From assembly GCA_013138865.1 (NCBI GenBank), contig WTBY01000033.1:489-64488 (forward strand): DNA of 64,000 nt, read 5' to 3'. The DNA comes from Helicobacteraceae bacterium (GTDB lineage Bacteria > Campylobacterota > Campylobacteria > Campylobacterales > Sulfurimonadaceae). Below are positions 1 through 17,269 of the stretch, piece after piece. Numbering within the stretch: the stretch's first letter is position 1; the number at the start of each line of letters is the position of its first letter. The position numbers were made by a program, and so were the translations under genes. The notes beneath the pieces were generated by a model. It saw nothing but the letters and a program-made list of their open reading frames with translations, did no database searches and had not been told where the DNA came from.

Positions 1-417
1 TTTGATTATACAACTAACAATGATGAGCACAATGGGTATATAAAATTAAATTTACTTTTCGATTCTAATTCTAAAGATGAAATTATTCAAAAACTAATTT
101 TAACTTCTAAAAATAATGCAGTAAATGGTTCTCTTAAAAGAGTTAGTGAACGAATCTTTAAATTAACTAAATATCAAATAAGTAAAAAATTGATTGATTC
201 AATTCAATCTGAAATTTTTGATAAAAGGAATTCAATTGTTCATGAATCTGAAAACCATATGATAAAAAAAGAGAATATTGAAAGTTATTTTCAACTAACT
301 GAAAAATATTTATTTGAATTGGGTAAAGCATGTAAAAAAATTGGTGCTCCATACCTTGATCAAGCGAACTGGTTAGAAAAACCTAACAAAAACGAGGAGA
401 CCAATAGTTTACCCTAG
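1..417 (+). CDS. C-terminal part of a HEPN-like domain protein (5' end outside window)
   Basis: Frame 1 is open from base 1 to the stop at 415-417, so the listed 190..417 ORF is only the tail. The translation contains KRNSIVH, which matches the R-N-x3-H (Rx4-6H) HEPN motif, in a helical context. Confidence 0.45.
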   Translation, partial: FDYTTNNDEHNGYIKLNLLFDSNSKDEIIQKLILTSKNNAVNGSLKRVSERIFKLTKYQISKKLIDSIQSEIFDKRNSIVHESENHMIKKENIESYFQLTEKYLFELGKACKKIGAPYLDQANWLEKPNKNEETNSLP

Positions 418-13847: not shown

Positions 13848-15386
13848 ATGGAAAACAAAAAAGTAGCCATTTTTGGTGCAACTGGATACGTAGGTCTAAT
13901 TTTAGTAAATAGACTAATAGAACAAGAGATACATATAAAACTATTTCTTAGAAATAAACAGCGTGTTAAACATCTTCGTGCCTACCCTAACATTAAGATG
14001 TCAGATATTGAACTTACTTTAAATAACAGACGTTTAATTGCAGAAAAGCTTCATGGTATTGAGACTATTTACTATCTTATTCACTCTATGGATGCAGTTC
14101 ATAGTGATGACTTTGAAAAAACTGATCTTATACTGGCGCAAGTAGTTTCGCAAGCTGCTTATGTTGCTAATGTTAAAGAGATCATCTACCTTGGTGGTTT
14201 AGGTGTACAAACACCAACTCACCCACTCTCTGCACACTTAAGAAATAGGCATGAAGTTGGTGATAAGCTCCGAGAGAGTGGCATGAGTATAACAGAGATA
14301 CGCGCTGGTGTGATCATAGGTGCAGGCTCTGCTAGTTTTGAAATTATACGCTCACTTGGAAAGAGGTTACCTTTTATACCTAAACTTCCATACCAACAAG
14401 GAAGATGCAACCCTGTTGACATAGACGATATGATCGCTTATCTTTTGAATGCTTATCATAAAGAGTCATATCGTGGCAAAATTATTGAAGTCGGTACTAA
14501 GCGTAGTTATAGTTATGATGAGATGATCGCTATATTTGCAAAAGTAGTTACAAAAAGAGAGCTGAAAATTATAAATATTTACTTTTTGGGCTACTTGTTA
14601 AACAAAAAAATTCTCTCTTACTTAGTCTCTTACTTCTCTGCAATCCCTTACGCTCTGTCTAAACCACTAATCGAGGGTATTGACTCTATTGCAACTAAAG
14701 GTGAGTATGATGTTGAACTTATAGACAACAGCATAACTCCTTTAGAGCTAGAAGACTCAGTTGCAAAAGCTTCAGAGCATGAAGAGAATAAGCAAGTAGA
14801 GAGCTTTTGGGCAATACCGAGCTCTCTTCAAGTCCTCGCAAATAAGAATGAAGAGTTTCTCCACGTTAATAATAAAGAGAAAGAGTTTAGCATACTTGAC
14901 AACTATAAACAACGTGGAATTCTTTATGAAATTCGTGAACGAATAGTAGCTGAAGAAGATGTTGAAGCGATCTTTAATGAGATTCAAAAAATTGGTGGTG
15001 AACATGGCTACTGGTCACCTAGTTGGATGTGGAAAATAAGAGCTAAATTTGACAAAATTTTAGGTGGTCCAGGTATGAGCGTAGGACGACGTACCCATCA
15101 AGCTAACATGCGTATAGGTGAAAGACTAGACTTCTGGATTATCTCCGCTTACCAGAACGAAAAAGAGTCGAAAGTTCTAACATTAAAAGGAAGACTAAAG
15201 AGTCCTGGTGACTCATGGTTACAGTTCGTGATCATAAAAGTAGAAGATAAGTGGAAATTCACACTACGTGCCTACTTCAATCCAAAAGGCTACTTAGGTT
15301 ACGCCTACTGGTACTCACTATTTTTTGTACATAAATATATTTTTGACACTATGATAGATAATATAATGATTGAGGCTAAAAAATAG
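13848..15386 (+). CDS. NAD(P)-binding SDR/NmrA-like protein fused to a DUF2867-like C-terminal domain
   Basis: Rossmann motif VAIFGATGYVG at residues 6-16. The long C-terminal region resembles DUF2867. Confidence 0.65.
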   Translation: MENKKVAIFGATGYVGLILVNRLIEQEIHIKLFLRNKQRVKHLRAYPNIKMSDIELTLNNRRLIAEKLHGIETIYYLIHSMDAVHSDDFEKTDLILAQVVSQAAYVANVKEIIYLGGLGVQTPTHPLSAHLRNRHEVGDKLRESGMSITEIRAGVIIGAGSASFEIIRSLGKRLPFIPKLPYQQGRCNPVDIDDMIAYLLNAYHKESYRGKIIEVGTKRSYSYDEMIAIFAKVVTKRELKIINIYFLGYLLNKKILSYLVSYFSAIPYALSKPLIEGIDSIATKGEYDVELIDNSITPLELEDSVAKASEHEENKQVESFWAIPSSLQVLANKNEEFLHVNNKEKEFSILDNYKQRGILYEIRERIVAEEDVEAIFNEIQKIGGEHGYWSPSWMWKIRAKFDKILGGPGMSVGRRTHQANMRIGERLDFWIISAYQNEKESKVLTLKGRLKSPGDSWLQFVIIKVEDKWKFTLRAYFNPKGYLGYAYWYSLFFVHKYIFDTMIDNIMIEAKK

Positions 15387-15560
15387 GGAGTTTTTAATAA
15401 CCCTAAACTCTTTAAAAAAACCACTTCAGCTTTGTTGCAAAACAGTTCCGATCGCATACACTTGAAAACTATTTTAAAACTCATAACCTAGTTGTGCATC
15501 AAACCTATAGCTGTAGGAGTGGTAGTAGTTTTTTCATTTTGCTTGTTTCCATTTTTTGGT

Positions 15561-15566
15561 TATAAT
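15561..15566 (+). promoter_or_regulatory. candidate -10 box TATAAT for the small structured transcript
   Basis: TATAAT preceded by TTTTTTGG. It lies 5 nt upstream of the 5' arm of the long palindrome. Confidence 0.4.
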
Positions 15567-15570
15567 GCTC

Positions 15571-15697
15571 TTGCTGATATAAACTTATTACTTCGATGGA
15601 GTGGTAAACCTAGGCTTTGGGATTTTTTCTCTTAGCCTTTTTTTTTGCCCTCCAAAGAAGTAATAAGGGGGACTTATGGATAAGCTTATATCAGCAA
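15571..15697 (+). other. 127-nt imperfect palindrome / structured leader enclosing a ribosome-binding site
   Basis: Perfect helices read directly from the sequence: 15571-15582 pairs with 15686-15697 (12 bp), 15584-15594 with 15657-15667 (11 bp), and 15597-15601 with 15650-15654 (5 bp). Confidence 0.55.
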
Positions 15698-15735
15698 TAT
15701 TGCTTATGTGCATTTTTGCACCTATGTTAAATTAG
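15676..15735 (+). CDS. 19-aa hydrophobic peptide MDKLISAILLMCIFAPMLN (candidate type I toxin-like small ORF)
   Basis: ATG preceded by AAGGGGGA (15665-15672). The entire peptide is hydrophobic. It sits inside the structured element and upstream of a terminator. Not in the supplied ORF track because it is short. Confidence 0.3.
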   Translation: MDKLISAILLMCIFAPMLN

Positions 15736-15746
15736 TTTAACATAGT

Positions 15747-15778
15747 CAAGGGGTTTTGCCCCTTGCCCCTCTTTTTTA
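15747..15778 (+). terminator. rho-independent terminator
   Basis: CAAGGGG-TTTTG-CCCCTTG hairpin (15747-15765) followed by CCCCTCTTTTTT. Confidence 0.55.
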
Positions 15779-15835
15779 TTAATATATTAAAAATAACTAC
15801 TAGTACTTTTTCATTTAAAAGAGAATAAATTCTTT

Positions 15836-15844
15836 TGCTATAAT
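15836..15844 (+). promoter_or_regulatory. extended -10 promoter element TGCTATAAT
   Basis: It lies within a 19-nt stretch TTCTTTTGCTATAATTCAA (15830-15848) identical to 13823-13841. AGGAG and an ATG follow about 20 nt downstream. Confidence 0.5.
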
Positions 15845-15871
15845 TCAATCTATATTTGCAGGAGTTTGAAA

Positions 15872-17269
15872 ATGATAAACTTTAAAAACTACTCTCAAGA
15901 GACTTTTGAGAGTGCAAAAACACAAAACAGACCTATTTTTATTTTTGTTGGTTGTAGTGCAAGTGTGCACTCTTTAAACATTGAGAAAGAGCTTTTTACA
16001 AACGAGCAAATAGTCTCTTTTTTAAACGCACACTTTGTTTGTGTTAAAGTTGACAAAGATGAGCGGACAGAGCTTGATCTTTACTACCAAAAAGCCTACA
16101 AACTTTTAAACAATGCGAATGGAGGTTGGCCTCTTTTAGTATTTGCTACACCCTCAAACCAACCTTTTCACGCTAAAACTTATATGCCAACACACTCTCA
16201 AGATAAACTTTTAGGTTTTTACGAGTTTTGTGAAATTATAGTTGATAAAATAGAGAGTAAAGATAGTGACTTTTTTAAAAATGCAGATGAAGTAGCAGAG
16301 CATCTTACTCTTAGCGATCGCAACAAAGAGGCTACACGTTTAAGTTTGATACTTACTCAGAGTTACATAGCACAAGCAAAAGAGAATTTTGATGAGAATA
16401 GTGGTGGTTTCTTCGCAGATCCAAAGTTTCCAAACAGCTCAATCGTAAATACGCTTTTAGACTTTTATGAGAAAGAGAGTAACGCTGAAGTATTAAACAT
16501 GGTTACTAAAACTTTAAGCATGTTAAATAGAACTGCCTCTAAAAATGCTAAAGGCTTTTGGTACCGTCACGCTTACTCTGAAGAGTTTACACTCTACGAT
16601 CAAGCTCTTTTAGTTCAAACATTTGTAAAAGCTTACAAGATTTTAAAAAATGAAGAGTACAAAGATGTTGCTTTTAAGTGTTGTGAATTTATGCTAGAGA
16701 ACATGAGTGATGATGGACTATTTTACCTGTATGAAAACGACAAAAGAGTTATAACTTCACAAAACTCTATGATGATTAGTGCTCTTTTTAAAGTAAGTGA
16801 GTTAGACGAAAAGTATCTTCCGATCGCACTTAACTCACTTGAGAAGCTTAGTGCTAAAATGTATGTTAACTCAACTCTTTACCACTACGAAAATGTAAAG
16901 GGCTTTTTAGAGGACTTTGCATACTTTGGAGTGGCTCTTATAAATGCATATGAAAAAAGTGGTGATGAGATCTACTTTATTCAAGCACAACTAATAGCAA
17001 ACTCTGCTTTGAGTAATTTTTATGATAATGGTAGATGGTTTTACACAAAAACTAAATTTAGTATAGATGGTGACATTTATGATTCTCACATGCCAAGCTA
17101 CATAGGTGCTATTTGCGAGCTAATGGTAGCTTTAGCAGAAAAAGAGCCTAAATATATTAGCTTTACTAAGAAGAGTATTGAGTACTATTCTTACTCATTA
17201 GCAAGAGATATGATCTACTCTTCATACCTTTTTAAAGAAGCGATGAGTATAATCGCGAATAAATTATAA
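15872..17269 (+). CDS. thioredoxin-fold/DUF255 (YyaL-like) protein with alpha-toroid C-terminal domain
   Basis: The N-terminal pattern KPIFIFVG...FVCVKVDKDERTELD resembles the DUF255 thioredoxin-like domain, although the CxxC is not conserved. ATG at 15872 is preferred, 8 nt after AGGAG. Confidence 0.65.
   Translation: MINFKNYSQETFESAKTQNRPIFIFVGCSASVHSLNIEKELFTNEQIVSFLNAHFVCVKVDKDERTELDLYYQKAYKLLNNANGGWPLLVFATPSNQPFHAKTYMPTHSQDKLLGFYEFCEIIVDKIESKDSDFFKNADEVAEHLTLSDRNKEATRLSLILTQSYIAQAKENFDENSGGFFADPKFPNSSIVNTLLDFYEKESNAEVLNMVTKTLSMLNRTASKNAKGFWYRHAYSEEFTLYDQALLVQTFVKAYKILKNEEYKDVAFKCCEFMLENMSDDGLFYLYENDKRVITSQNSMMISALFKVSELDEKYLPIALNSLEKLSAKMYVNSTLYHYENVKGFLEDFAYFGVALINAYEKSGDEIYFIQAQLIANSALSNFYDNGRWFYTKTKFSIDGDIYDSHMPSYIGAICELMVALAEKEPKYISFTKKSIEYYSYSLARDMIYSSYLFKEAMSIIANKL

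Follow-up and report, generated by a model that had tools for sequence, protein, structure and literature searches.

In the 64-kb window analysed here (the whole stretch of 64,000 nucleotides from contig WTBY01000033.1 of a Helicobacteraceae bacterium), a small unit of approximately 220 nt occupies positions 15557-15777 of the plus strand. Judged from its conservation, this unit, which extends from a -10 box through a C-rich tail, is an autonomous and so far unannotated gene. It is also a member of what is, by all sequence indications, a new and widespread family of unannotated, locked mini-genes of toxin-like design in sulfur-oxidising Campylobacterota. A conserved extended -10 promoter would drive an RNA that encodes a hydrophobic peptide of 19 residues, and this mRNA has a conserved structure that appears built to hold the peptide untranslated. 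On balance, we favour reading the family as a toxin-like module that resembles type I toxin-antitoxin systems and for which no antitoxin was found.

The proposed lock consists of three long-range helices and a pairing between the Shine-Dalgarno (SD) sequence and an anti-SD, all backed by compensatory changes. More than 100 diverged copies make the family an unusually clean natural mutagenesis set for mRNA silencing. If the toxin-like reading is true, fold-back-controlled mini-toxin genes would extend to free-living sulfur-oxidising Campylobacterota, where a 19-residue product is too short for gene callers and thus invisible to annotation. If the peptide were non-toxic, the family would still hold a conserved micro-protein of 19 residues, with a Cys that never varies and an I-F-A-P motif, for which a partner search would be worthwhile.

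Copies, distribution and coding capacity

The source genome (3.03 Mb in 82 contigs) was searched for copies of the unit and contains four of them: copy A in the window, copy B on contig 13, and copies C and D in tandem on contig 26. The peptides of copies A, B and C read MDKLISAILLMCIFAPMLN, MNKLILTITLMCIFAPMLN and MSKLLFAITLMCIFAPMLN, respectively. The open reading frame (ORF) of copy D is broken (ATG AAT TGA, followed by an insert of about 100 nt; locus L010 1920-2220). Within the 64-kb window, a repeat search detected no second copy.

When one genome per species was scanned for the pattern, 97 stretches were returned, mostly from Sulfurimonas, Sulfuricurvum and assemblies labelled 'Sulfurimonadaceae/Campylobacterota', including S. 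indica NW8N, together with a few evident chance matches (Prevotella, Flavobacterium and others). As circularity with the ORF was to be avoided, we restricted a covariance model, R1, to the 5′ untranslated region (5′UTR), from ATGGAG to the start codon. R1 matched 91 of 353 Sulfurimonadaceae genomes, distributed over 11 of 23 genera with 1-7 copies each; among the good-quality genomes of this family the fraction was 58/214 (27%). When R1 was searched at the level of the order, weaker relatives with the same architecture and ORFs of 19-20 codons appeared in other Campylobacterales families, with peptides such as MWRLLLIILLLCLLTKKLY, MRLILFIILLICLLAVRAY and MQQLLLIVILLMFVITKLH. Rfam covariance models run over positions 14800-16400 gave chance-level matches only (E ≥ 3.2, far under the gathering scores), and a literature search found no report linking type I toxins with Sulfurimonas. 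The predicted family is previously undescribed, and it is present in Sulfurimonadaceae and in some other Campylobacterales.

The length of the ORF is almost perfectly maintained. With units anchored on 5′UTR features, exactly 19 codons were counted in 126 of 129 cases, ending in TAG (52), TAA (39) or TGA (35) and giving 121 distinct peptides. All 30 best R1 matches carry a 19-codon ORF, and 38 of 40 lower-scoring matches, which had been fetched regardless of any ORF, carry the ORF as well, GTG being the start codon in one case. Read in frame 0, codons 4-9 specify hydrophobic residues in 100% of cases, as compared to 55-60% when read in the other frames, and all 121 distinct peptides are hydrophobic from position 4 to position 15. 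Residues L10 and C12 never vary, and I13, F14, A15 and P16 vary hardly or not at all; even relatives with a different local RNA hairpin retain Cys12. The peptide consensus is M-[DNE]-K-[LI]-x5-L-[ML]-C-I-F-A-P-[ML]-L-[HNR]. The short hydrophobic ORF proposed in the earlier note on this DNA is therefore real and under strong purifying selection, as indicated by length and residue conservation over 129 units.

Two other readings of the coding potential were considered and rejected. L-L-M-C does not qualify as a lipoprotein signal under the lipobox rules, since its position -1 is occupied by M, L, I or V and a leader of only 11 residues would result. A leader mini-ORF, ATG-GAG-YGG-TAA, starts at the sole upstream ATG (ATGGAGYGGYAA); it lacks an SD, and its stop codon is not conserved, TAA being CAA in many copies.

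Tandem copies were found as C/D in the source genome and as a further pair on G188:C26. Decayed copies are D, L182, L202 and L164; in D and L202 the promoter, the arm and the terminator are kept and the ORF is lost. Copy D, though degenerate, has the best-scoring leader of the four source-genome copies (82.9 bits), and it shares an identical proximal 5′ arm (ACTTATTACTTC) with copy A, not with its tandem neighbour C. Copy D could be an orphan short-RNA gene whose product is able to pair with the copy A mRNA.

Structure of the unit

Copy A, to which the coordinates refer, is composed of the following parts; helices are numbered H1 to H4.

15557-15566 (+): promoter -10 region TGGTTATAAT, TATAAT at 15561-15566; family consensus TGnTATAAT
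15571-15582 (+): 5′ arm of H1, predicted 5′ end of the RNA; exact 12-bp complement of 15686-15697 (codons 4-8)
15584-15594 (+): 5′ arm of H2; exact 11-bp complement of 15657-15667, immediately 5′ of the SD
15597-15608 (+): 5′ side of H3, TGGAGTGGTAAA, with an SD-like GGAG motif; partner TTTGCCCTCCA at 15644-15654, TGGAG 15597-15601 pairing with CTCCA 15650-15654
15612-15646 (+): H4 hairpin at 15612-15638, then nine T at 15638-15646; terminator-like, inside the 5′UTR
15647-15654 (+): GCCCTCCA, 3′ side of H3 and possible local anti-SD, from fold and alignment
15657-15667 (+): 3′ arm of H2, GAAGTAATAAG, from exact complementarity and cognate duplex energy
15665-15672 (+): Shine-Dalgarno sequence AAGGGGGA, located in the H2/H1 bulge; covariation with the 3′ tail
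15676-15735 (+): ORF of 19 codons plus TAG, encoding MDKLISAILLMCIFAPMLN; ATG at 15676
15686-15697 (+): 3′ arm of H1 in codons 4-8, from exact complementarity, duplex energy and covariation
15708-15721 (+): hairpin GTGCA-TTTT-TGCAC over codons 11-16, from the fold and RNAalifold
15722-15745 (+): hairpin over the last four codons and the stop codon, from the fold and RNAalifold (4 pairs, each with 12-35 double changes)
15747-15765 (+): last hairpin, CAAGGGG-loop-CCCCTTG, from the fold, terminator scan and RNAalifold; family mean -11.0 kcal/mol
15766-15773 (+): 3′ tail CCCCTCTT, 3′-terminal anti-SD; complementary to AAGGGGG of the SD over 7 bp including one G-U
15772-15777 (+): run of six T after the tail, a feature of copy A that the family does not conserve

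A direct check of the sequence located every element that the earlier note had listed. It had not mentioned the H4 hairpin (15612-15638) with its nine T, the hairpin at 15708-15721, the C-rich, SD-complementary tail at 15766-15773 or the extension of the outer helix to codons 2-3 in the family. Across the family (alignments A1 and A2) the leader runs 5′ to 3′ from TGnTATAAT through a variable 5′ arm, ATGGAGYGGYAA, the GC-rich H4, nine T, GCCCTCC and a variable 3′ arm to the SD. From the ATG onwards, the ORF, GTGCA-N4-TGCAC, the hairpin of the last codons and stop, CAAGGGG-loop-CCCCTTG and the C-rich tail follow one another.

The fold of copy A exceeds chance expectation. Positions 15567-15785 (+) fold at -82 kcal/mol, as compared to -48.1 ± 4.3 kcal/mol for 200 dinucleotide shuffles, none of which was equally stable (z = -7.95; 0/200), so the fold calculation suggested in the earlier note places the structure beyond chance. 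The minus strand folds nearly as stably, since any palindrome does so. The plus strand was therefore chosen because the conserved promoter, SD, ORF and U tracts all lie on it, and not by folding.

We ran RNAalifold on a plain MAFFT alignment of 90 family members that had not been fitted to structure. H1 was recovered with compensatory double changes at 9/9 pairs, one of which is AU in 32, UA in 25, GC in 24 and CG in 8 sequences. The covariation analysis thus supports the outer helix at all of its 9 pairs, and the enclosure of the initiation region by 5′-end pairing, on which the earlier note had built its case, has been maintained through compensatory change. Covariation is likewise seen in the stop-codon hairpin, in H4 and in the last hairpin. 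In the hairpin over codons 11-16 four pairs are invariant, and covariation is thus uninformative for 15708-15721.

Because the arms are hard to align, duplex energies were compared too. The 5′ arm of H1 pairs with the ORF segment of its own copy at -14.8 kcal/mol and with the ORFs of other copies at -5.7 kcal/mol, the cognate segment being the best partner in 65/90 copies. For H2, formed by the proximal arm and the segment before the SD, the values are -13.5 kcal/mol for cognate and -3.8 kcal/mol for non-cognate pairs, with the cognate as best partner in 68/90 copies. In the family H1 reaches codons 2-3, with CTTAT opposite ATAAG (Asp-Lys) and CTTTTC opposite GAAAAG (Glu-Lys). Among 68 unbiased copies from this AT-rich lineage, 63 use AAG for the Lys. 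H3, which joins GGAGYGG with GCCCTCC, covaries in alignment A2 (GCGGT/ACC, GCGGC/GCC and GCGAC/GTC). RNAalifold also offered an alternative in which the GCCCTCC element is paired with the SD, and that pairing shows no covariation. As in toxin mRNAs whose SD or start codon is sequestered, H1 and H2 enclose both the SD and the AUG, and the SD itself covaries with the tail.

The H1 and H2 arms are only 56% identical in pairs of copies that are 90-95% identical elsewhere, and between paralogues B and C they are 44% identical with 96% identity in the rest. This bears on the proposal, raised as an alternative in the earlier note, that the palindrome is a miniature inverted-repeat transposable element (MITE) or a REP/ERIC-like repeat with an incidental ORF. 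A long imperfect palindrome in an intergenic gap, present several times per genome, is what such a repeat would look like. Arms that are about 44-56% identical between copies (as compared to 90-96% for the rest) and yet complementary within each copy are, however, the opposite of conserved terminal repeats. Further, the count of copies per genome and of preserved ORFs gave just 1-7 copies with the ORF preserved, not many copies with a lost one, and the length and residues of the ORF, the promoter and the SD are all conserved. We reject the repeat-element explanation and give it almost no credence.

The pairing of the SD with the tail falls into several sequence classes, namely GGGGG/CCCCC, GGGAGA/TCTCCC, GGGAGCC/GGCTCCC, GGAGGCC/GGCCTCC, GGAGGAC/GTCCTCC and GGGAGGC/GCCTCCC. 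The diagnostic pair (alignment 170/292) is GC in 60, AU in 24, GU in 4 and another combination in 2 sequences, and the observed covariation score was matched by 0/500 shuffles and by none of the slid controls. Distant relatives have perfect SD:tail duplexes of 9-11 bp, for example GAAGGGGAC/GTCCCCTTC. As this pairing crosses H1 in a nested drawing, it would represent a pseudoknot or an alternative state. The conserved pairing of an SD with a 3′-terminal tail strengthens the analogy to hok and aapA1.

The leader contains an element of a different kind. H4 has a family mean of -16.0 kcal/mol, the T run behind it is exactly nine in 90/90 copies, and the stem abuts the T run in 90/90, so that H4 and T9 have the form of an intrinsic terminator, a GC-rich stem-loop followed by a U tract without spacer. 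A terminator scan calls H4+T9 in L009 (paralogue B), L157, L160, L166, L171 and L173; it is the only terminator found by the scan in the units of paralogue B, L157, L160 and L166, and additional terminator-like sites are listed for L171 and L173. In copy A the H4 stem is interrupted by a 2x2 internal loop and is weaker, which explains why the scan did not call it there; the site that the scan found in copy A is at 15747-15765. That site had been described as a terminator (15747-15778) in the earlier note, a description that fits the T run of copy A and does not extend to the family: within 18 nt downstream of the last hairpin, the longest run of T is at most 3 in 60/83 copies and at least 4 in 23/83. 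H4+T9 is the only conserved canonical terminator predicted in the unit. Termination at U9 would yield an RNA of 65-92 nt whose extreme 5′ end is largely unpaired.

The apical loop of H4 measures 8-10 nt and contains a 6-nt palindrome in 80/90 copies, as compared to 14.6 ± 3.3 in shuffles. At least four kinds of palindrome occur (TAATTA, TCATGA, TTCGAA and TGATCA; e.g. L025 4981-5073 and L018 1590-1687), palindromy thus being kept while the loop sequence changes. Palindromic loops are atypical of terminators and typical of kissing-loop dimerisation sites, and kissing loops are, to our knowledge, the one way for two RNAs of identical sense to find each other. The four source-genome copies have a plain TTTTT (U5) loop without a palindrome, and the argument from loop palindromes does not apply to them.

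The relative L171 has a second GC-rich hairpin with T9 at 344-372 (-), immediately upstream of its own promoter. Either a captured terminator or a tandem unit that has been truncated might account for it.

Readings of the unit and the missing antitoxin

We propose the following mechanism for a toxin-like module. The 5′ end of the RNA would pair with codons 2-8 and the next segment with the stretch directly upstream of the SD; by this pairing of H1 and H2 the SD and the AUG come to lie in a closed bulge. The SD would also pair with the C-rich tail after the last 3′ hairpin, following the logic of the hok 5′-3′ lock and of the aapA1 3′-end lock, and the SD-like GGAG and the CCUCC of the leader, which pair with each other, can offer alternative partners. 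RNA polymerase would meet an intrinsic terminator before it reaches the SD, and most transcripts would stop at about 65-92 nt. The peptide mRNA would then arise only from read-through, with its SD paired to the leader CCUCC or to the 3′ tail. The peptide is presumed to be harmful when made, as a membrane-active toxin of the type I kind near Ibs in size. Activation would come from removal or opening of the lock; as in aapA1 (PMC8322730), the 3′ end might for instance be trimmed back as far as the last hairpin.

So many apparent barriers to translation of a 19-residue membrane peptide, in loci that are patchily distributed, present in several copies and at times tandem or decaying, are characteristic of type I toxins (PMC2887945, PMC8594479). 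In size and hydrophobicity, too, the peptides agree with the description of type I toxins as small (<60-70 residues), hydrophobic, often tandem and often overlooked by gene callers (PMC2887945), as the peptide has 19 residues and all 121 distinct versions are hydrophobic at positions 4-15.

Several results weigh against the toxin-like reading. Several sequence searches for an antitoxin RNA, antisense or divergent, found none. On the minus strand, TAnnnT occurs nowhere in at least 30-40% of the copies when these are anchored on the ATG, T9, ATGGAG or the last hairpin. Minus-strand -10-like hexamers in the 24 nt 3′ of the unit, which is where Sib starts in E. coli, are depleted (0.18-0.23, as compared to 0.25-0.39 further out). 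The only recurrent antisense -10 candidate, TGCAAAAAT on the minus strand of codons 12-15, was rejected because its first T is missing in nearly all copies; its essential last T is missing in 11 of 68 unbiased copies, and it is absent from distant relatives. Plasmid and phage collections gave no match to the family. Lastly, C12 and the I-F-A-P motif suggest a specific partner and not generic membrane damage, and a specific partner would also fit a non-toxic regulatory micro-protein.

Five GC-richer relatives (L157, L160, L166, L171 and L173) were scanned as well. No antisense promoter was found inside their units, with the sense promoter found in 3/5 and the internal terminator in 5/5. The only minus-strand candidate among them, in L173, lies 3′ of the unit and scores 9/12, which is chance level, and it was discarded. 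A classical antisense antitoxin is thus unsupported, with the limit that sequence scans could miss a weak or atypical promoter. The type I toxin layout that the earlier note had recognised therefore stands in part: the multi-copy and patchy distribution, like that of type I loci, and the SD-tail lock agree with it, and the antitoxin RNA is the part that was not found.

A tightly controlled, non-toxic micro-protein is the main rival explanation, though a fairly unlikely one. The peptide would be a regulatory or accessory membrane subunit, comparable to small proteins that bind transporters or sensor kinases, and the RNA locks would make its synthesis conditional. The (near-)invariance of L10, C12, I13, F14, A15 and P16, and the retention of Cys12 despite a differing hairpin, would reflect a specific protein contact, and the failure to find an antitoxin agrees with this explanation. 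Housekeeping micro-proteins are, however, usually single-copy and encoded in an operon with their partner, whereas the unit is present in only 27% of the good-quality family genomes, in 1-7 copies that are sometimes tandem or decayed, and without a conserved neighbour or partner gene, the context differing for every copy. Multi-layer translational repression is, moreover, typical of harmful products.

The main product might instead be a trans-acting small RNA that ends at the internal terminator, the ORF transcript being an occasional read-through in a dual-function or decoy arrangement, and the unit would then not be a toxin gene. We consider this quite unlikely. It would account for H4+U9 being the only conserved canonical terminator in the unit, for a predicted RNA of 65-92 nt with a largely unpaired 5′ end and then a terminator hairpin, like classical small RNAs, and for the retention of promoter, 5′ arm and terminator without the ORF in D and L202. 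About 95% or more of the units, however, keep the ORF at its exact length and with its amino acids constrained, which implies that both read-through and translation matter. In addition, a search of the source genome found that the only complements of the variable 5′ arm lie within the same unit.

For the toxin-like module itself, the source of an antidote may lie on the same strand. We know of no described type I system with an invariant U9 terminator before the SD or with self-complementary leader loops, and these two leader features, together with the failure to find an antisense promoter, make a same-strand RNA antidote possible. Toxin and antidote would then be nested sense transcripts from one promoter, an arrangement that we rate as unlikely. 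An abundant small RNA of about 65-92 nt would end at the hairpin-U9 terminator, and its free, copy-specific 5′ arm would be the exact complement of both segments flanking the SD and AUG in the read-through mRNA. Its targets in trans would be mRNAs that have lost their own 5′ arm or in which that arm has been opened. This arrangement fits three observations that are otherwise unexplained, namely the lack of a detectable antisense promoter, the fast-diverging arms and the palindromic H4 loops. Fast divergence of the arms would be expected if every copy needs a private recognition code, and the decayed copies D and L202 (promoter, arm and terminator without ORF) as well as the strict T9 are compatible with a copy-specific antidote acting in trans.

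The unit appears to be transcribed on its own. The family -10 consensus TGnTATAAT lies 34-41 nt 5′ of the ATGGAG motif, and GC-richer relatives have a full TTGTCA-17-TATAAT promoter with the TG at the same place. This conserved -10 box bears out the self-contained transcription unit that had been proposed for the window. In the family alignment, nothing is conserved 5′ of the promoter. Nor do the units share a neighbouring gene, since even the largest cluster of real neighbours adjoins just 9 of 114 units. In the source genome the four copies sit in unrelated contexts: copy A lies near NmrA/DUF2867 and DUF255 genes, copies B and C are next to Sel1-repeat genes, and copy D is beside a gene weakly like an outer-membrane protein (OMP) beta-barrel. 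An association with Sel1-repeat or OMP-like genes, considered from the source genome, was rejected as it was not seen at 134 other loci.

These contexts also bear on the idea that the short ORF is a leader peptide or attenuator of the downstream DUF255/thioredoxin-like gene (15866-17269). In the window, a short ORF followed by hairpins does lie upstream of a gene on the same strand. At other copies, however, the gene that follows is unrelated or lies on the opposite strand, and the DUF255 gene has its own promoter-like site at 15815-15844, which makes the attenuator extremely improbable. This site reads TTAAAA-18-TATAAT with TG and is consistent with the small unit being transcriptionally separate.

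Further features were noted in the surroundings of the copies. At 15425-15545 (-) of the window lie the decayed remains of a small gene with weak similarity to outer-membrane beta-barrel proteins (MKKLLPLLQL, a stop, then an internal deletion). The remnant resembles an intact gene of 155 residues located divergently upstream of copy D (contig 26, L010 1444-1911), which has a weak OMP_b-brl match under the Pfam cut-off. Because of this remnant, copy A seemingly arrived by segmental duplication that carried part of the neighbour. A transposase-like gene, which we take to be of IS3 type, has its C-terminal end roughly 300 nt upstream of copy B (L009 1-170, contig 13). Several Sel1-repeat genes surround copies B, C and D, and the region looks variable and recombination-prone.

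Comparison with known type I systems

Type I systems have been documented mainly in enterobacteria, Firmicutes and Helicobacter/Campylobacter (PMC8594479, PMC2887945), and the genomes in T1TAdb are those of species with published systems (PMC8594479). Within the same phylum, aapA1/IsoA1 and aapA3/IsoA3 of Helicobacter pylori are likewise chromosomal, multi-copy genes for small hydrophobic peptides. The full-length aapA1 mRNA is untranslatable before 3′-end processing, and in aapA3 the SD is sequestered by metastable hairpins (PMC8322730). The family shares with aapA a predicted lock of the full-length mRNA through pairing of the 3′ end and the SD, and upstream CU-rich or SD-like elements that can sequester the SD during transcription (PMC8322730; PMC6733600). 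AapA differs in having about 30 residues and a Lys-rich tail, whereas the family peptide has 19 residues, lacks such a tail and is of other composition. IsoA is antisense to the 5′UTR and ORF start, where the family has no conserved antisense -10 box, and the units therefore do not belong to AapA/IsoA. In comparison to aapA, the family has an additional copy-specific lock between the 5′ end and codons 2-8 and a canonical U9 terminator in the leader.

The hok/sok system of plasmid R1 resembles the family in its heavily structured mRNA, in which the initiation region is closed by a long-range 5′-3′ interaction, and the hok mRNA is activated by 3′ trimming. Membership in Hok/Sok is contradicted by the lack of a mok-like leader ORF, by a length of 19 codons as compared to the ~50-residue Hok and by the failure to find a Sok-like promoter; hok resides on plasmid R1, whereas the family was not found on plasmids. 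The tisB/istR-1, zorO/orzO and dinQ/agrB systems of E. coli have inert primary transcripts that are activated by 5′ processing. Here, too, the primary transcript is seemingly inert through the structure of its leader, and the U-rich single-stranded tract in the family leader could be a ribosome standby or S1 site as in this group. Their antitoxins are adjacent, divergent small RNA genes, whereas the family conserves nothing outside the ~220-nt unit.

In its peptide, the family is close to ibs/sib of Escherichia coli. IbsC (MMRLVIILIVLLLISFSAY) has the identical length of 19 residues and shares the M-x-[KR]-L N-terminus, and GC-richer relatives have an M-x-R-L start and an A-Y, A-H or A-F end like Ibs (MRLILFIILLICLLAVRAY). 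Both ibsC and the family are repeated in the genome and have a GC-rich hairpin immediately 5′ of the SD. As in the family, the 3′ hairpin of ibsC is followed by a tail (ACCCTT), which is complementary to AAGGGT right before the ATG. The best match of R1 in the ibsC locus falls exactly on the ibsC leader (L214 1158-1207, -), at a non-significant E = 0.3. In this leader, ATGGGGCTGTAACGGTAAAG followed by a GC-rich hairpin resembles ATGGAGCGGTAAAG and the hairpin of the family, and ATGGGGCTGTA is shared with subfamily 2, identical over 11 nt (L048, L054, L093, L113). A distant relationship to the Ibs family may thus exist; homology was not accepted, as the similarity is suggestive and not significant (E = 0.3). 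Two further differences separate them. The antisense RNA Sib fully overlaps ibs and has its TTGACA-17-TAATTT promoter immediately 3′ of that gene, and no such promoter was found 3′ of the family unit, so that the units match Ibs/Sib in length and not in their antisense partner. In addition, ibsC is without the U9 terminator and the 5′-arm/ORF helix, both of which the family has.

Since the defining antisense partner was not found and the similarity is not significant, we do not file the family under aapA, hok or ibs. Its nearest counterpart in logic is aapA/IsoA and its nearest counterpart in peptide is Ibs, while it shares the 5′-3′ lock with hok/sok.

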